From assembly GCA_964537555.1 (NCBI GenBank), contig CAZIAD010000001.1:5732-69731 (forward strand): a DNA stretch of 64,000 bases. The letters run 5' to 3'. Origin of the DNA: an uncultured Brevinematales bacterium (GTDB lineage: Bacteria; Spirochaetota; Brevinematia; Brevinematales; CAYRWR01). The notes beneath the pieces are model-generated. The model saw only the letters and a list, made by a program, of their open reading frames with translations, did no database searches and was not told the origin of the DNA. Each line of letters starts with the position of its first letter. The first letter of the stretch is position 1. A program made the position numbers and the translations under genes. Positions 1-64,000 of the stretch are shown here, piece after piece.

Positions 1-72
1 CTTTACCGCTGAGGACGCAAAGGGCGCTGAGTTTGTGGGGCCAGATTCAGGCCTGAGTTGGATTTCTTCGCC

Positions 73-106
73 GACTTTCGACTTTCAACTTTTGACTTTT
101 GACTTA
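73..106. repeat. short tandem repeat (GACTTTY)x5
   Basis: gactttc gactttc aactttt gactttt gactta at the window edge, 3' of the hydrolase gene. Confidence 0.5.
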
Positions 107-186
107 TTCTGCCCGGTGCCTCGGTCTTGGCCGGAAGGTACCAGATGACGGAGAGGCCTGTGATATAGGAGGGATTCAACTATCTC

Positions 187-1584
187 TTACTTCTTTTTAC
201 TGAATAAACACCTGTCTACTTTTAAAAATACATTCTCCTCATTTTCAAAGAACAATATTGTTTCTTTATCAGAAAAATTATATGTGTAGAAGTTCATGCA
301 TTCACTATCATTGTTTTCCGGAAATATAGGGAAATCAAAAGGGTTTTCTTCCCTTAAAATTTTCACAGAAAGATAACCCGACTTATCACTGACTTCAAAT
401 TGATATATATCTTTGTAAGTGGAGTATTTTCCTGTTAATTTTTTCCAGTGTTTTTCCTTTTTATAGGCATAATTATTTTTCATGGGATCCACTCCAAGGT
501 ATGCCTGTAGTAGAGCTGTAGTGTGCCTAAAATAGGGAGAGGAAGAAGCATTGGAAAGAAGAATGACACCTGCCTCTAATTCCGGCAACAAAATAATTTG
601 AGTTGTGTAATTTGCGGTAGCTCCCCCGTGCCTGACAACTTTTTTTCCGTGAAAATCTGACAATAAAACCCAACCCAGGCCATATCCCTCACTCTTTGCC
701 TCTGGCATTGATAAAGCAAAATCATCTGAATAACTGTGTTTAGCAGTAAGATCATCCCAAGATTTCTTATTTTGTAATAAACTTTTATCCTGAGTCATCA
801 CTGCCTGAACATATTTCGCCAGATCCGGTATATTGCTTGTGATACCACCTGCCGCATAAAGATTGTTATCTATAGTTCTCTGGATAGCTAATATTGCTTT
901 AGCCTTGTTTACATAGCCTTTGGCTAATTCCGGGTTTTCCAGAAAATCCTTTTCATCTATGAAACTGGAATTCTTCATTTCCAAAGGAGTAAAAATATTT
1001 TGTGTGATATAGTCTTTATATTTCATTCCGGACAAGTCCTCAATGATAAATCCTAATAGATCATACCCTCCATTAAAATAGAAAAATTGCTCCCCGGGTG
1101 CAAACTGTACCTCATCTTGTGCGTTATTTATAAATCGCATAATGTCATCTCTACTGCTCATTGGGATGATGGGAATGTCTTTTTCGTCATCAGTAAAATA
1201 ATTGATTTTTACTGCTGTATCCAGGGCAGGAATTCCACTGGAATGACTGAGGAGGTGTTTTATAGTGATGGGTTTATCTTTATCACCAAGGGTAAAATCA
1301 AGATGTCTGGAAACAGGGTCATTGATATCCAGCAGGCCTTTCTCTGATAACTGAAGTATAGCGATAGCTGTGAATGCCTTGGTACACGATCCAATTCCGA
1401 ATACACTGTTTATAGTTATCGGTTCATTGGTACTCCTGTCTTTTGTGCCAAAACATGCTTCATATTTGATTTCACCTTTTTCTATTAGAGCCACAACTGT
1501 TCCGGGTATTCTACTCGTTGCCATATTATCCGCGATTTTATCTTCAAAAATGGGTATAAATTTCTGCAATTCTGTCTGATTCAT
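187..1584 (-). CDS. serine hydrolase of the beta-lactamase/penicillin-binding-protein (class C-like) family
   Basis: 465-aa ORF; SxxK active-site motif (GSCTKAF) near the N-terminus, fold-level resemblance to AmpC/esterase family VIII. Confidence 0.75.
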   Translation of the reverse strand: MNQTELQKFIPIFEDKIADNMATSRIPGTVVALIEKGEIKYEACFGTKDRSTNEPITINSVFGIGSCTKAFTAIAILQLSEKGLLDINDPVSRHLDFTLGDKDKPITIKHLLSHSSGIPALDTAVKINYFTDDEKDIPIIPMSSRDDIMRFINNAQDEVQFAPGEQFFYFNGGYDLLGFIIEDLSGMKYKDYITQNIFTPLEMKNSSFIDEKDFLENPELAKGYVNKAKAILAIQRTIDNNLYAAGGITSNIPDLAKYVQAVMTQDKSLLQNKKSWDDLTAKHSYSDDFALSMPEAKSEGYGLGWVLLSDFHGKKVVRHGGATANYTTQIILLPELEAGVILLSNASSSPYFRHTTALLQAYLGVDPMKNNYAYKKEKHWKKLTGKYSTYKDIYQFEVSDKSGYLSVKILREENPFDFPIFPENNDSECMNFYTYNFSDKETILFFENEENVFLKVDRCLFSKKK

Positions 1585-1770
1585 AGATATCTCCTTCTAG
1601 TGAAAGTAAATTCTTTATATTTTATTTCATAAAACTCATTTTCCATGTAATAGATGCCGCTTTATGCACCTCCATTAAAGATAACAGATAGGGTGACAGT
1701 GATTGTTCCTTATCCATTTCTTCAAATCTAATCACCGAGAGGCCTGTGTTGTATTATGGGCATTTATTAT

Positions 1771-2508
1771 TCACTTTATCATTTTTCCAAAATAGATATA
1801 AGAACTTAGGCTATAGAAGTACTCTTCCTTCTCATCTAGATCTTTCATTTCCTTAATGATCTTCAGATGGTCTTCGGACCCTATGACCCCTTTTTCCACA
1901 AGGGCATTAAGGTCCATCATTCGGTCGAATCCGTACGAGCCTTCTTCAAATCTGGTTTCAATGAGGTTGAAGATCTCGGGCTGACCCTGAAATCTGCCTG
2001 AACTTTGGAAGAATCCCCACAGCTTACGGCCCATCATTCCGTCACAGGCATCCATCCAGCCTTGTTCCCAGTCTGCAAATCTGTGCACAAAGTCCCGGAT
2101 CAAATCCTTGTTTTCTGAATTCCAGACCTGTGTGTCCCAATCCCAGTGGGCAAACAGAACCCGGCCTCCCGGTTTAAGAATACGGCACAATTCTTCCAGC
2201 AGCACTGTCTTGTCAGGGATACACTCCAGTACATCTACAGAAAGGATAACATCGAAGCTGTTGTCCGGGAAATCAAAGGCATCAACAAATTTTTGGACTT
2301 TGAAGTCTATACCGGGAAAATGCTCAGAGGCATAATCCTGTGATTCAGGCAGAGAATTCGTTCCGATCAGGATGCTGTTGGGTGAAACATGTTTCTTTAC
2401 TTCTCCCAGGAGCTGGCCATTACCGCAGCCAAAGTCGAGGATGCTATAATCCATATCCTTATCCAGGTTCAAAAGTTCGATTATTCTTTGGCTGAGATGA
2501 TGTTTCAT
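1771..2508 (-). CDS. class I SAM-dependent methyltransferase
   Basis: 245-aa ORF with glycine-rich SAM motif I (LDFGCGNGQLL) followed by acidic motif II region. Confidence 0.75.
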   Translation of the reverse strand: MKHHLSQRIIELLNLDKDMDYSILDFGCGNGQLLGEVKKHVSPNSILIGTNSLPESQDYASEHFPGIDFKVQKFVDAFDFPDNSFDVILSVDVLECIPDKTVLLEELCRILKPGGRVLFAHWDWDTQVWNSENKDLIRDFVHRFADWEQGWMDACDGMMGRKLWGFFQSSGRFQGQPEIFNLIETRFEEGSYGFDRMMDLNALVEKGVIGSEDHLKIIKEMKDLDEKEEYFYSLSSYIYFGKMIK

Positions 2509-2645
2509 CTGACACTCCCTGAAGGCCTAAAAAGTATTAGCCTCTCTTTTTTATCTATTAAGACCAGATCCAACCAGCCTGGCAAATGAAGTGAGGACAT
2601 TGCGCGGCAATAGTAGCGTCTGTGTCCTGCATTGAATTTGCTCAA

Positions 2646-3203
2646 TCACATTTTAAAATCTTTTTTAATGATTGAATACATTTTATAATTATGAAAAGTA
2701 CCATTATTATCAGGAGCATAATGTCTTAAGTTCCCTTCATACTTCATTTCTACTTTTTCTAATACTTTTTCAGAAGCAGTATTACTCTCATTAACAGTTG
2801 CCTGGACCCTTTCAAATCCTACATCGATTAAAAGAAATCTTATGATTTCTTTCAGTGCTTCTGTCATTATACTTTTATTCCAATATTTTTTTGAAATGCA
2901 ATAGCCTATCTCACATCTTTTATCTCTATCAGAACAATCTATTACTCCCACTGAGCCTATAACCTGATTATCCTCTTTATATTTTATTGCCCATTGATAC
3001 GACTCGGCATTGTCATATTCTTTGACCCAGGTATTTATTACACTCTTAGTTAGCTCAATATTTTCATGCGCCTTCCAGGTTAAGTATTTTGCTACCTCAT
3101 CATCGGAGGCCCAATTATTGAACATATTTTCAGAATCTTCTACTTTGAATTTTCTCAATATTAATCTCTTCGTCTCAATTTCTTTTGTTCCTAAATGATT
3201 CAT
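2646..3203 (-). CDS. GNAT family N-acetyltransferase (RimJ/RimL-like)
   Basis: 185-aa ORF; N-terminal 'ETKRLILRKF...YLTW' pattern typical of RimL-type GNATs. Confidence 0.7.
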   Translation of the reverse strand: MNHLGTKEIETKRLILRKFKVEDSENMFNNWASDDEVAKYLTWKAHENIELTKSVINTWVKEYDNAESYQWAIKYKEDNQVIGSVGVIDCSDRDKRCEIGYCISKKYWNKSIMTEALKEIIRFLLIDVGFERVQATVNESNTASEKVLEKVEMKYEGNLRHYAPDNNGTFHNYKMYSIIKKDFKM

Positions 3204-3245
3204 AAATTACTCTCTCATTTAATATTCCGCTACGGAACAGTCAAA

Positions 3246-3776
3246 CTATTTAACTCTAGCGTAAACTTTACAATCTCGCGGAATCAAGGAGATATTAGGA
3301 TGTATTATCCATTTTCTCAAGGTCCCTTCAAGTTCCATACCCAGTTTTTTCATGACACGTCCTGATGCAGGGTTATCTATATCGTGAACTGCCCAAATTC
3401 TCTGGATCTCAGGAATATTATATATCCAATTAAATACAGGGATTAATGCTTCAGTCATCAAACCTTTGTTCCAGTATTTTTTTGCTAATGCGTATCCAAA
3501 ATCAGCTTTAAATCCGTCTACTCTAAAATCAAGCATGCCAATGATCTCTTCTGCTTCTTTTAAATGAATCACAAAAGGAAATGCTTTACCAGTATCCCAG
3601 CTAGCAATTGCCATTTTAAGAAACTCTTGAATGGTTGATATTTTTTCATGTGGAGTCCAGGTGAGATATTTTACAACATCTGAGTCCTGGGCATAGTTCT
3701 TAAATATATCTTTCGCATCATTAAGGTCCGGTTTTCTTAAAATCAGTCGCTCAGTTTCAAATATCATATTTCTCAC
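3246..3776 (-). CDS. GNAT family N-acetyltransferase (paralog of upstream gene)
   Basis: 176-aa ORF; 'ETERLILRKP...YLTWTPH' plus conserved 'KKYWNKG(L/I)MTEAL' motif shared with 2646..3203. Confidence 0.7.
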   Translation of the reverse strand: MRNMIFETERLILRKPDLNDAKDIFKNYAQDSDVVKYLTWTPHEKISTIQEFLKMAIASWDTGKAFPFVIHLKEAEEIIGMLDFRVDGFKADFGYALAKKYWNKGLMTEALIPVFNWIYNIPEIQRIWAVHDIDNPASGRVMKKLGMELEGTLRKWIIHPNISLIPRDCKVYARVK

Positions 3777-3898
3777 CTGTATCAGGAATAATTTATCTTA
3801 TTCTAACTATCCTCTCCAAAATAATCCAGCATCCCGGCGTTACAGCGCCTTAAGGCCGACTCCTGTCCTGAGTTTATCAGATGTAAACAAATAAAAAC

Positions 3899-3927
3899 TT
3901 GACACACTAACGAACGTTAGCTATTAT
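3899..3927 (+). promoter_or_regulatory. sigma70-like promoter (TTGACA-17-TATTAT) with embedded palindromic operator CTAACGAACGTTAG (3907..3920) upstream of the TetR gene
   Basis: -35 TTGACA 3899-3904, -10 TATTAT 3922-3927, inverted repeat ctaacg-aa-cgttag between them; SD aaagggg before ATG 3956. Confidence 0.55.
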
Positions 3928-3955
3928 TTATATAGATAAAGGCAAAGGGGAAAGT

Positions 3956-4573
3956 ATGTCACCTAAACAGGCAGATACCAAAGAGCGAATATTTGAGACC
4001 GCTGTGGAGCTGTTTGCCACCCGGGGCTACCATGCCACCAGCATCCGGGACCTGGCGAAGGCAGTGGGAATAAAAGAGAGCTCCATCTACAACCATTTTT
4101 CGGGTAAGAGCGCCATCCTGGATGCTATACTGGAGTACCAGATGGAGGGATTCCGCTCACTGGGGGAGAACATCCGGGTACCCGCACTGGAGGATCCATC
4201 CATCCATGACGCGCTGACTCTGTGGATGAGCGCGTCCCAGGCCTATGTCCAGTACCAGCCCCCCTTGTCGGAGAAGATCTCCCGCATCCTGCTCAATGAG
4301 ATGTTTCTGCATGAAAAGTGCCGGGAGTTTGTGCTGGAGATCATGTTTAATATTCAGAAGGACATTACGGAAAAACTCCTGGTGGAACTGCAGCGCAGGG
4401 GATTGATCCGGGATATTGATATCCATGAGACCGCCCTGGAGTATGTCTATATGATACACGGGATGGATGTGGAAAACCGTCTCTTACTACTGGAGGGCCA
4501 TGACCCCCTGGCGCTGAGGCAGAAGCTGTTTGATCATGTGCGTCACTTTATTCAGGGTATCAGTAAGGACTGA
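3956..4573 (+). CDS. TetR/AcrR family transcriptional regulator
   Basis: 205 aa; N-terminal HTH signature 'RGYHATSIRDLAKAVGIKESSIYNHF'. Confidence 0.85.
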   Translation: MSPKQADTKERIFETAVELFATRGYHATSIRDLAKAVGIKESSIYNHFSGKSAILDAILEYQMEGFRSLGENIRVPALEDPSIHDALTLWMSASQAYVQYQPPLSEKISRILLNEMFLHEKCREFVLEIMFNIQKDITEKLLVELQRRGLIRDIDIHETALEYVYMIHGMDVENRLLLLEGHDPLALRQKLFDHVRHFIQGISKD

Positions 4574-6460: not shown

Positions 6461-7765
6461 ATGATAGATAAAGATATGGTCCTGACTGCCCTGAGCGCCA
6501 TACAGGACCCCGACCTCCATAAGGACATCGTGAGCCTGGGATTTGTAAAAGACATCAACATAGCAGAGGACAGCGTGTCTCTGTCCATAGAACTCACTAC
6601 CCCGGCCTGCCCCATCAAGGACCAGTTTAAAAACACTGCTGAGCAGCTCCTCCTGGCCCTGCCCGGCATTAAAAAGGCCGTTATCAAAATGACCAGCCGG
6701 CCCGCGCCCGTGCGCCAGGCTGTAGAGAGCAGCCTCAAGGATGTAAAAAACATCATTGCCGTAGCCAGCTGTAAGGGCGGGGTGGGTAAGTCCACCGTAG
6801 CCGCTAACCTGGCCATGGAGCTGTCCCGCCGGGGCCACCAGGTAGGCCTCCTCGATACCGACCTGTTCGGGCCCTCGGTGCCCACCCTGTTTCACATACA
6901 CGACCCCAAGATAGAACAGCTGGATAAGGGCTGGGTCTCTCCGGTAGAGTACAACGGGCTCAAGATGATGAGCTTCGGCTTTTTGTTTCCGGATCAGCCA
7001 ATGGTGATGCGGGGACCTATGGTGTCGGGCTACATCCAGCAGATCCTGCATGCCGTGGACTGGGGCGAGCTGGACTACCTGGTACTGGACATGCCTCCCG
7101 GAACCGGCGACATACAGCTCACTATCACCCAGTCGGTACGTATCACGGGAGCCCTCATCGTGACTACCCCCCAGTCCCTGGCCATCGCCGATGTGATCAA
7201 GGGCATACAGATGTTCGAAAAGGTCAATGTACCAATGCTGGGCATAGTGGAAAACATGTCCTACTTTGTGTGCGATAACTGCGATAAGAAACACTATATC
7301 TTCGGTACTGCGGACCAGATCCCCCTGGAAAAACGTTTCGGACTGACTACCCTGGCCCACCTCCCTCTGGAGAGGGTACTGACCGAGGGCCTGGCGATCT
7401 ACGAATCACGTCCCGATGTGGCAGCTATGACCGACGCAGTGGCTATGGCCCTGGGCCGCCGCACAGCCGGACAGGACGCCATCCCTACGGTGGAAAAGGC
7501 GGGCCGGGACCTCATCGTGCACTGGACAGATGGGAGCAGCTCCGATATCGCCTCACGCGACCTCCGGGCCGCCTGCCAGTGTGCCAGCTGTGTAGACGAG
7601 TACAGCGGTAAGCAGATCCTGGAGGTAGACAGTATCCCCTCCGACATAGAAGCCCTGGAGATAGTACCCATAGGCAGCTACGCCGTATCCATCAAGTGGT
7701 CCGACGGCCACAACAGCGGCATCTACAGCTGGAAGATGTTTAAAGAAGTGCTGGGCATTTCCTGA
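6461..7765 (+). CDS. apbC: Mrp/NBP35 family Fe-S cluster carrier ATPase (ApbC) with N-terminal DUF59/MIP18-like and C-terminal DUF971-like domains
   Basis: 434 aa; P-loop 'CKGGVGKST', deviant Walker A, CxxC 'VCDNCDKKHY'; N-terminal 'DPDLHKDIVSLGFVKDI' segment. Confidence 0.85.
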   Translation: MIDKDMVLTALSAIQDPDLHKDIVSLGFVKDINIAEDSVSLSIELTTPACPIKDQFKNTAEQLLLALPGIKKAVIKMTSRPAPVRQAVESSLKDVKNIIAVASCKGGVGKSTVAANLAMELSRRGHQVGLLDTDLFGPSVPTLFHIHDPKIEQLDKGWVSPVEYNGLKMMSFGFLFPDQPMVMRGPMVSGYIQQILHAVDWGELDYLVLDMPPGTGDIQLTITQSVRITGALIVTTPQSLAIADVIKGIQMFEKVNVPMLGIVENMSYFVCDNCDKKHYIFGTADQIPLEKRFGLTTLAHLPLERVLTEGLAIYESRPDVAAMTDAVAMALGRRTAGQDAIPTVEKAGRDLIVHWTDGSSSDIASRDLRAACQCASCVDEYSGKQILEVDSIPSDIEALEIVPIGSYAVSIKWSDGHNSGIYSWKMFKEVLGIS

Positions 7766-7777
7766 GTAAGAGGATAA

Positions 7778-7925
7778 TCTCTCACAAAGACACAAAGGGC
7801 ACAAAGTTTTTTGGTTTAGGTTTGATTTAATTTTCAGAGCATATCAGGAAATATACTCCTAAATTCTTTCTGTCTTACTTTGTGGTCTTCGTGTCTTTGT
7901 GAGAGGCTCTTTCCCCGCTGCTGGG
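7778..7925. repeat. composite palindromic repeat element, copy 1 (inverted-repeat arms ctctcacaaagacacRaag / cttcgtgtctttgtgagag plus GC-rich tail ggctctttccccgctgctggg)
   Basis: arm 1 7778-7810, arm 2 7874-7909, about 60-nt AT-rich spacer; tail 7905-7925 lies inside the 3' end of CDS 7875..8723. Confidence 0.7.
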
Positions 7926-8723
7926 TAAGCCCGGATAATACTTTTGGGCACAATCAGGGCACATACTGTGGGTAAAGTCTGCTTCTGAATGCCGGGAGAT
8001 ATAGGTCTCTACACTGCTCCAGGTACCCTGTTCATCTCTGATCTTTTTACAGGAGGAACAGATGGGCAGGAGGCCGCTGAGCTGCCTGACCCGGTCCAGG
8101 CTGGCTTTGAGTTCCCGGTTGACCCTAAAGGTCTGCCGGGAGCTGCGTTCTACCAGATAGGCGGCATAGGTAAATATCAGTATCATTCCAATCAGGAAGA
8201 AATCATAGACCATGAGAAGACCGGGAGCCAGGGGCACCACAAAAATAAAGACCACATTAAACACCAGCAGGTCTGTCAGCATAGCCAGGATACTGAATCT
8301 CAAGCCCATACCAGCTGTGGAAAATATGGCGGCAAATCCCATGACCAGGCCCAGGGAATAGAGGCTGAACTGCTGGGTAGAATCCCGGGACACCAGGAAA
8401 ATACTGAACAGGCCTACCAGAAGAATATACATTCCTGAACTCAGTATAAGATAGCGCCTCATACCCGGTATAAATGTCAGAACGAAGATCAGTAAGCCTA
8501 CCAGAATAAGAGATAAGCGTACCACGCTCACCTGAACTGCCGCCTCCCCGAACACCAGCTGGTCCAGGAGGGCAAAAGTGCCGCCCAGTAGCGGGATAAT
8601 GAGCCAGGCTATACGGCAGAAGACCAAGGTGTTATTTGCGGTCTGCTCCCTGTAGGCTGACTCAGTATTTTTATCTTCAAAGGGTAATGCAAGAAGCTTC
8701 ATACGGTTTTTCTTTTGTTTCAT
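7875..8723 (-). CDS. polytopic membrane protein with C-terminal cytoplasmic C4 zinc-ribbon (CSSCKK...CPDC)
   Basis: 282 aa; about 6 predicted TM helices, then 'LPICSSCKKIRDEQGTWSSVETYISRHSEADFTHSMCPDCAQKYY'; last about 16 codons are encoded by the repeat element. Confidence 0.65.
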   Translation of the reverse strand: MKQKKNRMKLLALPFEDKNTESAYREQTANNTLVFCRIAWLIIPLLGGTFALLDQLVFGEAAVQVSVVRLSLILVGLLIFVLTFIPGMRRYLILSSGMYILLVGLFSIFLVSRDSTQQFSLYSLGLVMGFAAIFSTAGMGLRFSILAMLTDLLVFNVVFIFVVPLAPGLLMVYDFFLIGMILIFTYAAYLVERSSRQTFRVNRELKASLDRVRQLSGLLPICSSCKKIRDEQGTWSSVETYISRHSEADFTHSMCPDCAQKYYPGLPSSGERASHKDTKTTK

Positions 8724-8825
8724 AATGTGTCCTGATATACATTATTCTCACAATAATATAACATAAGATAACCTAATAACTAATATATTGCAAGAGGATT
8801 TTTCATTCAGGGCTGCAATGGACGA

Positions 8826-8970
8826 TCTCTCACAAAGACACCAAGGGCACAAAGTTTTTTTTGAGATTTTTTTGTGTAATCCTTCTACTCTACTTAGTGA
8901 TCTTCGTGTCTTTGTGAGAGGCCTTTATCCCGCCACGGGATGGGTCAGACGGAGGGGGCTGAAGAGGAAC
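8826..8970. repeat. composite palindromic repeat element, copy 2 (same orientation as copy 1) with extended GC-rich tail
   Basis: arm 1 8826-8856 (tctcacaaagacaccaagggcacaaagtttt), arm 2 8899-8922 (cttcgtgtctttgtgagaggcc), tail 8921-8970. Confidence 0.7.
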
Positions 8971-9184
8971 AGACAAAGATGCCGCGGAGCAGGGTCCCGC
9001 TGGGGCAGGGGATATGCGCAACCCTGCCCGTCCTGCTTAGGGCCTGATCCCTTTGTACCGGGAAAGCAGGGAGTGAGGATGCAGCCCCGGAATATACATG
9101 GGGCTATGTTATGATTTATCTGTTTTATATAAGCTCATGCTGAGGGCCTGGCTTTGATTTTTCCCAGGACAAGGGAATACTGGT

Positions 9185-9838
9185 CTATCCTTCCAGAGTG
9201 CGGTCTTTGCCGGCTCCTTCGATATTGATGCCATCCAGACGGAAGGTGTTCTCCATGAGCTGTATCTCGGTATCCAGGTCCATGATATCATCCTGGAGCA
9301 GCTTGGCCAGCTGTTTTTCAAAGGCTTCTTCTATAGTGTCCAGCAGTTTTTCCACCTTGGTCAGAGAGCTGCGCACCTGCTCTGACACTCCGGCCTGTTT
9401 CTGGAGCTCGGTGTAACGGTTGATGATCTGGAGGGTCGCTTCAAAGGAATAATTGAGGAACTGACGGGCCGCCTTGATATCCTTGGGGTCTTTCTGGAAG
9501 TCCTCATAGATCTTCTCGATAAGGACGGTGATGGCCTCCAGTTTGGCCTTGATCTCGGTCTTTTTTACCTTAGGGATATAACTCCGCATGATCTTGATAC
9601 GCTGCGCCCCTTCTTTCAGGGTCTTATCCAGCATCTCCGGGGTCACCCCGTTCATGTGCAGTTCCACATCCTTTTCCTTTTCCGGAGCCAGTACAAAATA
9701 AATGCCGAAATAAGCGGCGGCAGAGATCAGTATAGCTACAATAGGGTTAAGCTTAAGAATGAATAAAAACAGAAGAAAAATAGCTCCCCCGGCAATTCCG
9801 GCCCAGAGAGATGCGGCACCTTTGGATTTTTCAGGCAT
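9185..9838 (-). CDS. membrane-anchored coiled-coil protein, XpaC (5-bromo-4-chloroindolyl phosphate hydrolysis protein)-like
   Basis: 217 aa; two N-terminal TM helices then long helical domain; family assignment from overall architecture only. Confidence 0.45.
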   Translation of the reverse strand: MPEKSKGAASLWAGIAGGAIFLLFLFILKLNPIVAILISAAAYFGIYFVLAPEKEKDVELHMNGVTPEMLDKTLKEGAQRIKIMRSYIPKVKKTEIKAKLEAITVLIEKIYEDFQKDPKDIKAARQFLNYSFEATLQIINRYTELQKQAGVSEQVRSSLTKVEKLLDTIEEAFEKQLAKLLQDDIMDLDTEIQLMENTFRLDGINIEGAGKDRTLEG

Positions 9839-9924
9839 GGATCACTCCTTGGATCTATTTGATTCCTAATACATCTATTATAACAGATATGATTAAAAAA
9901 AAACAGATTTCACGTTTAGTGGAT

Positions 9925-9952
9925 TTGACAAATCACATGCGGGTGCTATAAT
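9925..9952 (+). promoter_or_regulatory. sigma70-like promoter (TTGACA-16-TATAAT) for the ABC transporter operon
   Basis: TTGACA 9925-9930, TATAAT 9947-9952; SD ggagga at 10005-10010 before the ATG at 10019. Confidence 0.55.
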
Positions 9953-10018
9953 AGCATGAGTTTTTTACTTTTCTCATAGAGATTTATGTAATACAAGAAA
10001 TATATTGGAGGATTTGTT

Positions 10019-11074
10019 ATGAAAAAATTAGTGGTATTGTTGTCCCTGGGACTGATGTTGTTTGTTTCAGCCTGTGGCGGAGAAAAAGAACTGGTGATCA
10101 AGATACCTCTCGTGACCTGGGGTGGCTATGCAGCCCTGTTTGCTGCCAATGGCGGTGCCCAGCCCAGCACAAATTCACTGTTTTATAAATATGGAAAGTT
10201 TAAAGTAGAACTGGTACAGGAAGAAAACCCTGCCAACCAGCTCCAGGGATTTGCCAAGGGTAGCTACCAGATCATCTGGTCTACTATGGACATGCTGCCC
10301 CTGCACTATGACTCTCTGAGTAAGGATACCCGGACCGTACCCCAGGTCCTGGGCCTGTTTGACTTTTCAGCCGGGGGTGACGGTATCATCGTACGGGGAG
10401 ACATCAAGTCTGCGGCTGACATGAAAGGAAAGAAGATCGTCACTGCCCAGTATACCCCCTCACACTACTTTATCATGTGGTACCTGGACCAGGCCGGACT
10501 CACTGAAAAAGACGTAAACATGATCTACGTATCCGACGCCATCCTGGCCAAAGATACCTACATCAATGATAAAGACATATCGGTCTGTGTGACCTGGTCA
10601 CCCTTTATCTATGACATTACCGATCCCACCAAAGACACCTATGTGTCAGGCTCCAAGCTGCTCACCACTACCGCTCCCGGCAATGACTCCTATGGACTCA
10701 TCGCTGATGTCTACCTGGCCCGCAAGGACCTGGTGCAGGAGCATCCTGAAGTGATCGATGCCTTTGCCCGGGCCATGATCGAAGGTTATGACATCTTTAT
10801 GAGGGACCAGGATGCGGTAGCCGAGATGATCGCCGGCTTCTTCGGCCTCAAAGGCGGAGCAGAAGAGGTCAAGCTGATGTTCGGCGATGTCACTATAGGT
10901 GGAAAAAAAGAAAACCTGCAGTTCTTTGATGCTAAAAATAAATTTTCAGCATACAATATTTTCAATATCTCTACTGAACTGTATAAGAAGAACGGTGCGG
11001 TACTGCCGGCAGACTTTGCGGTAGACCCTAATTCTGTGATCTACAACCGGCCTATCATCACAGCTGCTCAATAA
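10019..11074 (+). CDS. ABC transporter substrate-binding lipoprotein, NMT1/SsuA/TauA (aliphatic sulfonate/nitrate/taurine) family
   Basis: 351 aa; signal peptide + lipobox (LFVSAC); 'KGKKIVTAQYTPSHYFIMWYL' SsuA-like motif. Confidence 0.75.
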   Translation: MKKLVVLLSLGLMLFVSACGGEKELVIKIPLVTWGGYAALFAANGGAQPSTNSLFYKYGKFKVELVQEENPANQLQGFAKGSYQIIWSTMDMLPLHYDSLSKDTRTVPQVLGLFDFSAGGDGIIVRGDIKSAADMKGKKIVTAQYTPSHYFIMWYLDQAGLTEKDVNMIYVSDAILAKDTYINDKDISVCVTWSPFIYDITDPTKDTYVSGSKLLTTTAPGNDSYGLIADVYLARKDLVQEHPEVIDAFARAMIEGYDIFMRDQDAVAEMIAGFFGLKGGAEEVKLMFGDVTIGGKKENLQFFDAKNKFSAYNIFNISTELYKKNGAVLPADFAVDPNSVIYNRPIITAAQ

Positions 11075-61569: not shown

Positions 61570-62427
61570 TTGATAAAAGTAGGAGCAATTATTATAAAAT
61601 ATCACTCTTTCTTACTGATAATAGTCTTATTTCTAACATCTTGTAGTCCTCGTATACTAGAAAGAAAAGAAATTCCAAGTCCTAGAGATGGAATAAAGAG
61701 AGAATCTATACAGTATGTAAGTCAAGGCATATCTGTTCGAGGGTATATACTTCAACCTGAATCCGATACTAAAAGTCTACCTGTAATTATTTATATTCGT
61801 GGTGGACATTCAAAATTGGGATTTATATCTGAAGAGTTTTTTGATTATCTTGCATTCATATCTAGTCTAGGATATGCAGTATTTATAAATGAACAACGTG
61901 GAGCTACTTTTACAGATGGAAAAGATGAATATGGTGGCAAAGAAATAAATGATGTGAAAGCACTTATTCGTATTGCTCTCAAAGAAAAAAATATTGATAA
62001 GAATAAAATATATATGTGGGGTAATTCTAGGGGTGGAATGATGGCATATCTCTTCCAGAAATATCAGCTACCAATAAAGGCAATGGCAGTAACCGGAGGA
62101 ATCTCTGATTTGTCTTTTTCATATAGCAATCGTGAAAAGAGTTTCCAAGATGTGCTTGATGATGCAATCGGTGGACCTCCTGCAAAATACCCTAAAGATT
62201 ATCAGTCTCGATCAGCAGTATGTTGGCCAGAAAAGTTTCACATTCCAGTAATTATTATACATGGAGAAGATGACTGGAGAGTTCCTGTTTCTCAGGTTTC
62301 AAATTTGGTTACAAAATTAGAGAACCTCAGCAAAGAGTTCGAGGTTCATATTCTACCTGACCAACCACATTTTACAGATACAAATATTTCAATTCCTTTA
62401 ATTAAAGGTTGGTTTGAGAAATATTAG
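61570..62427 (+). CDS. alpha/beta-hydrolase lipoprotein (S9 peptidase/dienelactone-hydrolase-like) in AT-rich island
   Basis: 285 aa; lipobox LTSCS; GxSxG 'WGNSRGGMMA'; 'IIHGEDDWRVP'; GC about 33%. Confidence 0.7.
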   Translation: MIKVGAIIIKYHSFLLIIVLFLTSCSPRILERKEIPSPRDGIKRESIQYVSQGISVRGYILQPESDTKSLPVIIYIRGGHSKLGFISEEFFDYLAFISSLGYAVFINEQRGATFTDGKDEYGGKEINDVKALIRIALKEKNIDKNKIYMWGNSRGGMMAYLFQKYQLPIKAMAVTGGISDLSFSYSNREKSFQDVLDDAIGGPPAKYPKDYQSRSAVCWPEKFHIPVIIIHGEDDWRVPVSQVSNLVTKLENLSKEFEVHILPDQPHFTDTNISIPLIKGWFEKY

Positions 62428-62475
62428 GTTTTTGAAATTAGAATAATATGATATTAAAATATAACACAGTACCTA

Positions 62476-62520
62476 ACTAGGACTCTGCAGCCACTATAGC
62501 GGCGCTGAGTCATGTACGTT
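62476..62520. repeat. island-associated GC-rich imperfect palindrome R2 (aactaggactctgcagccactatagcggcgctgagtcatgtacg)
   Basis: dyad gactctgc...gctgagtc; about 80% identical to R3; between genes. Confidence 0.6.
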
Positions 62521-62549
62521 ATCTACCATTTAAATAGGAAGAGAAAAAT

Positions 62550-63044
62550 ATGGATAGAATTTTTGAATTAGTTTCTAAAGCTTATACAACTAATGAGTTA
62601 GATGCACTAGTAAATGGTCAAAAAAACTATGGTTTACAAACACCTTATATGTGTCCTGTAAAAGAACTTCCAACAGACTGGCAAAAATTATTAATAGAAG
62701 GGATTTATCCCTTCTATATGAATAGTGATAAGCAGATAAAAAATAAAATGGAAAAAATGTTACTCAGCAATATGGATTCAATATTGGGATTGTATTGCAC
62801 AATAAATTTGTTTTTCAGACAAATAATGAATGAGTCTTTTGGCAATTCCCCATTCATAATGGATAAAGAAGCTATCATACATGATATACCAATAAAAATA
62901 AAAATGTTTAAAAGTGACTTGAAAAAAGATTTTCGATGGATGGGCGAGCATTTAGCCCAAGGACTTTATGATGAAATTCAAAGGATGATTTCAATTCTTA
63001 ATACTGATTTTAAAGTTAAATTAAGTAATACGCTAGATAACTAG
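62550..63044 (+). CDS. hypothetical protein (helical, no recognisable motif) in AT-rich island
   Basis: 164 aa; GC about 28%; SD ggaagag before ATG. Confidence 0.6.
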   Translation: MDRIFELVSKAYTTNELDALVNGQKNYGLQTPYMCPVKELPTDWQKLLIEGIYPFYMNSDKQIKNKMEKMLLSNMDSILGLYCTINLFFRQIMNESFGNSPFIMDKEAIIHDIPIKIKMFKSDLKKDFRWMGEHLAQGLYDEIQRMISILNTDFKVKLSNTLDN

Positions 63045-63085
63045 GACTCCGCCGCCACTAGCCCAGTGCAGAGTCATTTCATCAT
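63043..63085. repeat. island-associated GC-rich imperfect palindrome R3 (aactaggactccgccgccactagcccagtgcagagtcatttcat)
   Basis: dyad gactccgc...gcagagtc; overlaps the TAG stop of 62550..63044. Confidence 0.6.
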
Positions 63086-63114
63086 ACACCTTAAAAAAAC
63101 AGAGAGGACACCTT

Positions 63115-63741
63115 ATGAAAAAAACACTCTTCAGCACCCTTTGTCTTTTGACCCTCTTATCCTGTCAGACACAGTCTGAGCCTAAAAAGGATTACCTTAA
63201 TGCCTATAAGACAAAAAATTACATTTGGTATAAGAATAAGATCTTGAGTAAAAAAATTTATCTGGGAGAGCATCTGGATACTGTGCTCCCAAAAGTCAAA
63301 GATAAAGACTTAGAGGTCAAACTTCAGGATAATATGCCTGAAGTGAAATACTTCGTAAGCAGTACCAGACTGTTTGGATATGACAGCGATGCATTATTCA
63401 GGTTTGGTTTTGACTATCTGGTATATGTAAAATATATGATAGTAGTACATGATGAGGCATATAATTCTGTCTACTCTAAAATAGAGCGTATTTTGAGCAA
63501 AAAATACGGCCCTTACAGATTAGATGCTTCCCATGAAAAACAATGGGTCATAGCTGAAACCTATTCTGTCACTTTAGGTAAATTTATCCATACTGGTAAT
63601 GAGCCCTATGATGCCATTACAGTTACCTACCGAGAGCACCGTGTCACTTCCAAAATCATTGAAAGGGCGAGGCAGGATCTGGAAAAAAAGGAAGAAATCG
63701 ACACCGTTCTGGATCTGGCCTATAATCCTCATAATCAATAA
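63115..63741 (+). CDS. lipoprotein of unknown function in AT-rich island
   Basis: 208 aa; signal peptide + lipobox LLSCQ; SD gagagga. Confidence 0.6.
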   Translation: MKKTLFSTLCLLTLLSCQTQSEPKKDYLNAYKTKNYIWYKNKILSKKIYLGEHLDTVLPKVKDKDLEVKLQDNMPEVKYFVSSTRLFGYDSDALFRFGFDYLVYVKYMIVVHDEAYNSVYSKIERILSKKYGPYRLDASHEKQWVIAETYSVTLGKFIHTGNEPYDAITVTYREHRVTSKIIERARQDLEKKEEIDTVLDLAYNPHNQ

Positions 63742-63753
63742 GGATCTTTAAAA

Positions 63754-64000
63754 ATGGAAAGACTACATATCAGGAAAATCGGAAAAGAAAACATCAAGCT
63801 TCATATCCAGTGTCGCATGACATATTGCCTCAGGGACTCTAAAGATGTGGCTCAAAAAGAGTATGAAGCCTTTTTTAAGGATGTAGAGGAATGGACCCTG
63901 GAGCAGCTGAAATCAGATTCCTATTATACCTATGCGGGTTATTTAGGTGATGAATTAATTTGCTTTGCCGGGGTTCTGATATATGAGCTGCCTCCCATTC
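63754..64000 (+). CDS. GNAT-family acetyltransferase-like, 5' part (runs off window)
   Basis: MERLHIRKIGKENI... 'YAGYLGDELICFAGVLIYE'; GC returns to about 45%. Confidence 0.45.
   Translation, partial: MERLHIRKIGKENIKLHIQCRMTYCLRDSKDVAQKEYEAFFKDVEEWTLEQLKSDSYYTYAGYLGDELICFAGVLIYELPPI

Follow-up and report, generated by a model that had tools for sequence, protein, structure and literature searches.

Two hairpin-forming repeats bracket a gene for a membrane protein (7875..8723, minus strand) in a 64,000-nt stretch of DNA from an uncultured Brevinematales bacterium (contig CAZIAD010000001.1; the whole stretch is referred to here as the window, and positions are counted from its first letter). 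These repeats, designated copy A and copy B, are considered, with reasonable rather than high confidence, to be gene-less representatives of a widespread palindromic element family that is associated with genes for GxxExxY proteins. In form, they resemble miniature inverted-repeat transposable elements (MITEs) and hairpin-forming doublets of repetitive extragenic palindromic (REP) sequences (REPINs). Locally, the arrangement has the look of an ordinary MITE-type insertion; at the level of the family, the partnership of a palindromic repeat with a nuclease gene is apparently undescribed.

Each copy is built from a pair of 29-nt arms, and the four arms (7779-7807, 7877-7905, 8827-8855 and 8892-8920) form two inverted-repeat pairs with 90% complementarity in copy A and 86% in copy B. 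The loops that they enclose are 69 and 36 nt long, respectively. Every arm is composed of CTCT followed by three heptads (CACAAAG A CACAAAG GG CACAAAG) at a spacing of 8-9 nt, such that a CTCTCAC end and three CAC-N-R-AG heptads fill the 29 nt. The core 15-mer CTCTCACAAAGACAC occurs four times in the window, compared with 0.09 expected by chance, and is not found there beyond the four arms. The hairpins, their arms (with E values from the arm profile described below) and the gene between them are as follows.

7771..7924, plus strand: hairpin copy A, ~154 nt, consisting of 5' AGGATAAT, left arm, 69-nt AT-rich loop, right arm and 19-nt tail GCTCTTTCCCCGCTGCTGG
7779..7807, plus strand: copy A left arm, CTCT + CACAAAG A CACAAAG GG CACAAAG T; profile match E = 0.084
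7877..7905, minus strand: copy A right arm, CTCT CACAAAG A CACGAAG AC CACAAAG T, coding for SHKDTKTTK; profile match E = 0.67
8822..8939, plus strand: hairpin copy B, ~114-118 nt, consisting of ACGAT, left arm, 36-nt loop, right arm and tail GCCTTTATCCCGCCACGGG
8827..8855, plus strand: copy B left arm, CTCT CACAAAG A CACCAAG GG CACAAAG T; profile match E = 0.08
8892..8920, minus strand: copy B right arm, CTCT CACAAAG A CACGAAG AT CACTAAG T; profile match E = 2.2
7875..8723, minus strand: bracketed coding sequence; the 282-aa product is a polytopic membrane protein whose C-terminus carries a conserved CxxC...CxxC module (LLPICSSCKKIRDEQGTW...HSMCPDC...YYP)

Copy A lies between the membrane-protein gene and the convergent Mrp gene. 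Copy B lies between tandem genes, 104 nt upstream of the start of the membrane-protein coding sequence and 265 nt downstream of a PF10112 gene. The outer boundaries of copy A were inferred from its likeness to copy B and from GTAAG repeats that abut it. Robust similarity between the copies was confined to 7772-7812 plus 7865-7918 in copy A and 8820-8860 plus 8880-8933 in copy B, and the arms were conserved well above the loops. A GGG spacer is common to both left arms and CACGAAGA[CT]C to both right arms; these arm-specific differences imply that the two copies share one orientation and descend from a single asymmetric master. The loops showed no significant similarity to each other (p = 0.82), nor did the 19-nt tail when taken alone (p = 0.27), and the sequence beyond the tail and element was unrelated (p = 0.995 and 0.12). 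Given that both loops and outer flanks are unrelated, the pair is not a segmental duplication.

An earlier, sequence-only reading of the window had described two same-orientation repeats of ~145 bp around this gene, each with an AT-rich spacer of 55-60 nt and a GC-rich tail. The existence of the two hairpin repeats, their common orientation and their position around the gene were confirmed by the arms, the 15-mer counts, the folds and independent assemblies. The single length was not, since copy A spans ~154 nt and copy B only ~115 nt, ending near 8933-8939 rather than at 8970. The uniform spacer was replaced by the two unrelated loops, and the tail was retained as a stretch of ~13-19 nt for which the likeness between copies is not in itself significant.

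Long hairpins were predicted for both strands of both copies (-35.5 to -51.4 kcal/mol; z-scores from -4.6 to -7.5), and none of 200 shuffled sequences was as stable. Values for copy A were -48.9 (plus strand) and -51.4 (minus strand) kcal/mol (z = -6.6 and -7.5), and those for copy B were -35.5 and -37.7 kcal/mol (z = -4.6 and -5.0). Other sequencing runs provided two Logan assemblies that matched 6533-9973 and 7308-8985 at 100% identity, so the region is not an assembly artefact.

The wider distribution of the arms was assessed by scanning a collection of species-representative genomes with an arm core pattern of 19 nt that includes one N (18 specified bases). The core was found in at least 118 contigs from about ten phyla. 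Carriers included Chromatiaceae (with many copies in Thiodictyon and Lamprocystis), Geobacter, Desulfobacterales, Planctomycetota, Verrucomicrobiota, Kiritimatiellia, Lentisphaerae, Spirochaetota, Bacteroidota and Chloroflexota. At loci selected by their arms, two to five heptads of the form C-R-C-N-R-A-G are set 8-9 nt apart behind a (C)TCTCAC end. Loops range from 5 to ~150 nt among 61 short hairpins, in which the outer ends CTCTCAC/GTGAGAG are conserved, and the hairpins lie mostly between genes, as judged with crude models of open reading frames (ORFs). In four arm-selected loci the loop extends to 400-700 nt, and two of these four contain an ORF of ~125-127 aa. The window hairpins share the features that define the family: a CTCTCAC-type end, at least two heptads at 8-9-nt spacing and arms in inverted pairs.

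The ORF in the long loops encodes a GxxExxY protein (TIGR04256, E = 1.5e-40; PF13366) of the PD-(D/E)XK superfamily. All eight GxxExxY genes in the arm-selected loci abut arms, and GxxExxY is the sole protein cluster that recurs beside arms in this set; no other recurrent arm-adjacent gene, for example S23p, was found in the loci sampled. A further set of 80 metagenome loci was picked by the GxxExxY protein alone and provided 69 genes with enough flanking sequence. Arrays of at least two consecutive heptads were present within 130 nt of 68 of these 69 genes, compared with 0 of 69 when the flanks were shuffled. The density of arrays was 7.24 per kb beside GxxExxY and 0.38 per kb elsewhere on the same contigs. 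Most of these arrays were in a CGCAAAG/CGCCAAG dialect. Thus, the association between the heptad-arm family and GxxExxY genes is near-obligate.

Two topologies were seen in the protein-selected loci. In 30 cases a GTGAGA-type end stands on one side of the GxxExxY gene and a TCTCAC-type end on the other, the same topology as that of the membrane-protein gene in the window, and in 14 the gene is inside a loop; complete hairpins on both sides of the gene also occur. The hairpin-gene-hairpin layout is found elsewhere both around GxxExxY genes and around ordinary genes. An arm profile was then built solely from 145 GxxExxY-adjacent arms, and both strands of the window were searched with it at E ≤ 10. 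Exactly four matches were obtained in the 64 kb, with E values between 0.08 and 2.2, and these were the four arms of copies A and B. The hairpins in the window therefore belong to the GxxExxY-associated family.

Across phyla, GxxExxY proteins share 60-70% identity, and at least 8000 matches were obtained; this points to horizontal spread of the gene and agrees with a 2012 survey of the PD-(D/E)XK superfamily in which the function of the family was given as unknown and multiple transfers between divisions were reported (PMC3424549). A structure model of the protein was confident, with a predicted local distance difference test (pLDDT) score of 85. On plasmids and viruses, the arm was found once on a Thiodictyon megaplasmid and once on a viral contig. 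Literature searches with the motif in three dialects, the family accessions and PDDEXK combined with palindrome, whose coverage of the literature is incomplete, found no published account of the association between arms and GxxExxY.

Signs of mobility were sought at the edges of the elements. In a Thiodictyon metagenome-assembled genome (MAG), a sub-family of ~160 nt has defined ends, and six of its nine copies lie between direct repeats of at least 5 nt that are peculiar to each copy (GTTAAC, TTGAAC, TGACC, TAAGC, GAGCC and CTCAT); direct repeats of this kind were seen in 5.6% of mismatched left/right flank pairs. Judged from the sequences, these flanks bear the signature of transposition with target duplication. 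The mobile nature proposed in the sequence-only reading is supported both by the wide occurrence of the arm family and by the duplication-like flanks of this multi-copy sub-family. The corresponding candidate features in the window are as follows.

7766..7770, strand not assigned: candidate target-site duplication GTAAG, left, abutting copy A; boundaries chosen post hoc
7925..7929, strand not assigned: candidate target-site duplication GTAAG, right, abutting copy A; boundaries chosen post hoc
8818..8821 (partner 8940-8943), strand not assigned: candidate 4-bp duplication ATGG, abutting copy B; weak

The junction predicted for an empty copy A site is ...CCTGAGTAAGCCCGGATAAT... A Brevinematales relative has lost synteny at precisely this point, and its corresponding intergenic site contains no arms, so that the comparison documents the absence of the hairpins but not a clean empty site. 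The locus concerned (L204) shares the NMT1/ABC transporter genes and then the PF10112 gene with window positions 9185-11074, and the common gene order ends right after, at hairpin B; the homologue of the membrane protein is located elsewhere in the relative (L121). The break in synteny suggests, on this comparison, a rearrangement at or near the repeat.

The consequence of copy A for the bracketed gene can be followed at its 3' end.

7875..7924, minus strand: element-derived 3' end of the coding sequence, comprising the stop TAA (7875-7877), nine arm-coded codons and up to six tail-coded codons (PSSGERA)

The peptide SHKDTKTTK and the stop TAA fall inside the right arm of copy A, and SGERA falls in the 13-19-nt tail. 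The proposal that the repeat codes for the last ~16 codons and the stop is therefore secure for ten codons (nine plus the stop), and extends to ~16-19 only if the tail is counted as part of the element. In this same frame, copy B reads ...ASHKDTKITK and then a TAG stop. Alignment of 15 full-length homologues revealed that conservation stops at ...YP and that the tails beyond this point vary; none of the 15 carries an SHKDTKTTK tail. The nearest homologue, which has 60% identity and comes from a Brevinematales MAG, has the C-terminus ...YYPNLPDSSAKK and no hairpin after it. Deletion of 7771-7929 in silico restored an intact ORF ending ...YYPGLLRKCPALL and a stop. Given that the stop and nine codons lie in the copy A arm, that copy B yields the same peptide in the same frame and that homologues lack the tail, the C-terminal tail (...SHKDTKTTK) is to be read as repeat-derived. 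The comparison of orthologous C-termini that had been recommended in the sequence-only reading thus points to replacement of the tail by copy A. Neither of the two outcomes that were named there as fatal to it, an element confined to a single locus and orthologues that share the C-terminus without a repeat, was borne out. An odd C-terminal tail is thereby explained, and such tails, together with 'hypothetical proteins' read through the arms, can be flagged as annotation artefacts.

The 282-aa protein matched no Pfam or NCBIfam family. More than 2900 relatives were recovered by way of its conserved C-terminal module, LLPICxxCKKIRDDxGYW...FSHxxCPxC..YP. In the window, this module (LLPICxxCKKIRDDxGYW..E.Y...HS...FSHxxCPxC..YP, the C-terminal ~50 aa, 7875-8040) likewise has no Pfam or NCBIfam model of its own. 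Elsewhere it is fused to PAS, receiver and DUF4118 domains and to various membrane N-termini, and it looks like an unannotated signalling output domain that probably binds metal.

The following sequence of events would account for the locus. The loop of the family can be anything between a few nucleotides and an entire gene, and the short hairpins would spread as DNA in the manner of MITEs or REPINs, leaving short target duplications. We infer as the most likely route that a GxxExxY-type nuclease, recognising either the heptad arrays or a cruciform or hairpin formed by them, mobilises the hairpins in trans. Copy A would have inserted in the last few codons of the membrane-protein gene, near the convergent Mrp gene, and swapped a non-conserved tail for ...[PSSGERA]SHKDTKTTK and a new stop, leaving the CxxC...CxxC domain intact. 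Copy B, in the intergenic region upstream, would be another member of the same sub-lineage. When transcribed, either copy could form a 29-bp stem that would be a substrate for RNase III and might affect mRNA processing, by analogy with intervening sequences (IVSs) in rRNA and with Neisseria Correia elements.

Several observations weigh against assigning the window repeats to a mobile family driven by GxxExxY. The evidence for target duplication comes from one genome, that of Thiodictyon; the same test in Lamprocystis was uninformative, with copies embedded in composite arrays of other repeats that blur their boundaries. The GTAAG and ATGG repeats, at 5 and 4 bp and with boundaries chosen post hoc, are suggestive only as target duplications of the window copies. 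The window holds just two complete copies and one truncated arm of another dialect, and no GxxExxY gene was found in its 64 kb. As for the nuclease itself, a role in mobilising heptad hairpins is inferred. Foldseek comparison with the PDB returned non-significant likenesses to Cas4, Bax1, DrdV and VRR-NUC (E = 0.09 or worse), the PDB contained no sequence relative or solved structure, and PADLOC gave weak Cas4 matches only. The gene was absent from ~72,000 plasmid records, such that no vehicle for horizontal transfer is evident. Finally, the strong conservation of arms relative to loops could equally well reflect selection for an RNA or protein-binding function.

This last point bears on an alternative in which the hairpins, whatever their origin, are domesticated cis-acting RNA structures, no longer mobile, with stems that act in the PF10112 and membrane-protein transcripts as RNase III sites, 3' stabilisers or barriers to read-through from Mrp. 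The folds are very stable on both strands, conserved arms with free loops are the pattern of a structural stem, and copy A lies between convergent genes while copy B stands between tandem genes on the transcribed strand. A precedent exists in the rRNA IVSs, with heptamer-built 28-bp stems cut by RNase III (PMC4990558). On the sense strand of GxxExxY-flanking arms, G·U pairs exceeded A·C mismatches (57 versus 36, p = 0.04), which is a weak indication of selection on the heptad arms at the RNA level. Against such a role, these gene-flanking arms are only ~84% complementary, and what is conserved across phyla is primary sequence (the heptads), for which a plain double-stranded RNA stem would have no need. 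The relative lacks a hairpin at the corresponding position, so these genes do not carry it as a conserved regulatory feature. A scan for terminators and promoters called nothing at the hairpins, and neither stem is followed by a U-tract on either strand (the following sequences are GCTCTTTCCCC, GCCTTTATCCC, ATTATCC and ATCGTCC); the terminator role suggested in the sequence-only reading gained no support. Rfam searches of the whole window in gathering mode, and of 7650-9100 and eight related loci in E-value mode, gave no relevant family, only generic long hairpins with scores of 20-28 bits against thresholds of 48-211. A domesticated RNA role of this kind is regarded as unlikely. A NiCo-riboswitch match at 8990-9061 was rejected, being weak, in a spacer that is not conserved in the relative and with a structure z-score of -0.8.

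The remaining explanations are harder to sustain. Were the hairpins recombination sites comparable to integron attC, the membrane-protein gene would be a captured or moved cassette. The hairpin-gene-hairpin layout does recur around GxxExxY and unrelated genes, the CTCTCAC/GTGAGAG ends are conserved around loops of 5-150 nt, synteny is lost at hairpin B, and the bracketed gene's nearest homologue occupies a different context. Yet no integrase or recombinase is encoded within ~14 kb, attC core sites (GTTRRRY) are absent, and there are just two sites rather than an array. Moreover, copy A overlaps coding sequence, unlike a clean cassette boundary, and the genes bracketed elsewhere are diverse and occur in hairpin-dense genomes, where bracketing could arise by chance; a cassette is accordingly thought very improbable. 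Local duplication or gene conversion of one hairpin across the gene, without transposition, is given slightly less credence again. It would suit two copies that are 1 kb apart, in the same orientation and with common arm-specific differences, but it is contradicted by outside sequences that are unrelated (p = 0.995 and 0.12), by loops that are unrelated and differ by 33 nt in length, and by a short direct repeat that abuts each copy and is its own. Chance symmetry or an assembly artefact is refuted by four occurrences of the 15-mer where 0.09 were expected, by fold z-scores as low as -7.5, by the agreement of three independent assemblies and by hundreds of homologous arms elsewhere.

Assignment of the window repeats to the GxxExxY-associated family can be set against known systems. 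Like bacterial MITEs (Neisseria Correia, ERIC, RUP and BOX), the elements are ~100-160 bp long with terminal inverted repeats, no transposase and candidate short target duplications, and they insert at gene ends, with possible co-transcription and with terminal codons added or replaced. The window elements are below the size of ~300 bp usual for MITEs, and the absence of a transposase gene noted at the outset holds, neither element (154 and 118 nt) having an ORF of its own. Their arms are common to the GxxExxY units, which would stand in place of an autonomous element, GxxExxY not being a demonstrated transposase. Classical MITEs differ in carrying the inverted repeats of a known insertion sequence transposase family within a single lineage, whereas loops in the heptad family lack conservation even within a single genome and the sole associated gene is GxxExxY. 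A genome-specific or lineage-specific MITE does not fit an arm motif conserved across about ten phyla.

The likeness to REP/REPIN sequences and their REP-associated tyrosine transposases (RAYTs) lies in dispersed intergenic short palindromes and hairpin doublets, and in one small 'domesticated' nuclease gene that is flanked by the repeats and far outnumbered by gene-less copies. The partner of the heptad family, in contrast, is a PD-(D/E)XK protein where RAYT is an HUH/Y1 transposase, the arms carry no GTAG/CGTC tag, and they are heptad arrays with a motif that crosses phyla where each REP motif is specific to its RAYT lineage. The initial classification as MITE/REPIN-type accordingly stands for a small, gene-less element with terminal inverted repeats, and fails in respect of a RAYT, of REP sequences tagged with GTAG/CGTC and of restriction to a lineage. 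Integron attC sites, too, are imperfect palindromes in which the outer ends are conserved and the centre varies in length, and their same-orientation copies bracket single genes; the window hairpins differ in having no IntI integrase, no R''/R' core sites (RYYYAAC / GTTRRRY) and no array.

A closer parallel in structure is offered by the IVSs of 23S rRNA in Coxiella, Leptospira and Salmonella. In Coxiella, their terminal inverted repeats pair into a 28-bp stem, excision is by RNase III, and the stem includes tandem heptamers (GACAGAT) whose number varies between strains; the loop either carries a small ORF, S23p, whose function is unknown, or is short with no ORF, and the origin and mobility of these sequences are still debated (PMC4990558). 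Both are selfish stem-loops, with stems of ~28 bp there and of 29 bp with three heptads in the window. Loops in the heptad family are likewise either empty or occupied by an ORF of ~125-127 aa, and GACAGAT fits C-R-C-N-R-A-G at five of seven positions. The window copies differ in lying between protein genes instead of in helix 25 or 45 of a 23S rRNA gene, with no rRNA gene in the window, and the ORF of the heptad family is a GxxExxY PD-(D/E)XK protein where that of the IVS is a four-helix-bundle S23p. TAACTGA heptamers form intergenic arrays of two to six in Beggiatoaceae, Cyanobacteria and Bacteroidetes, with a patchy distribution and transfer for which there is 'no mechanism evident' (PMC4679880). 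They resemble the heptad family in being heptamer arrays scattered across distant phyla, but they are direct repeats of another motif, with no inverted arms and no link to a nuclease gene.

More broadly, the hairpins and GxxExxY together may constitute an undescribed, horizontally spreading selfish system present in many phyla, analogous to REPIN/RAYT on a different nuclease fold and maybe a free-living relative of the rRNA IVSs. The window hairpins would then be non-autonomous progeny that remodel gene ends and make RNase III-sensitive stems. This proposal is offered tentatively, and with more doubt than the assignment of the repeats to the family. It would give PF13366/TIGR04256, with its at least 8000 matches, a concrete function that could be put to the test, that of nuclease partner to a mobile hairpin, and it would provide a candidate relative for the rRNA IVSs, the origin of which has been open for ~30 years.

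Further observations were made on the arms and their surroundings. ORFs that run through arms, in the window (8890-9021, minus strand) and at other loci (for example L002, L010 and L084), give recurring SHKDTK... and LCLCVFVR... peptides. Such arm-read peptides cluster like protein families and are probably spurious 'hypothetical proteins' in databases. An arrayed rather than hairpin form of the heptad motif was seen in one genome (L083, 1629-7149, and L091), with at least nine same-orientation units of ~60 nt that each contain a single arm (...AATCTCTCACAAAGACACAAAGC.TTAGCGATTCTTCC...) and are ~260 nt to more than 3 kb apart.

The truncated arm in the window occupies positions 1-30 and is cut by the window start (..ACCGCTGAG GA CGCAAAG GG CGCTGAG); this dialect recurs in the relative from Brevinematales (L030, 7860-7890). 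Near window position 26, at this arm, an independently assembled Logan contig (L208) stops, which suggests a multi-copy repeat that breaks assemblies. The ending of independent assemblies at heptad arms, read as multi-copy behaviour, is of practical interest for metagenome assembly. The window is of low GC content at both ends (~36-38% at 1-4000 and 62000-64000, compared with ~47% elsewhere). Its first 4000 nt, which adjoin the truncated arm, may represent acquired DNA; they encode a beta-lactamase-like hydrolase, a methyltransferase and two GNAT acetyltransferases. Just 3' of the serine-hydrolase gene (187..1584, minus strand), positions 70-105 hold a tandem 7-nt array (GACTTTC GACTTTC AACTTTT GACTTTT GACTT), similar to the heptanucleotide tandem repeats of cyanobacteria and Beggiatoaceae, and the same array is also present beside the end of the ManC gene in the Brevinematales relative (L204, ~7028-7052).

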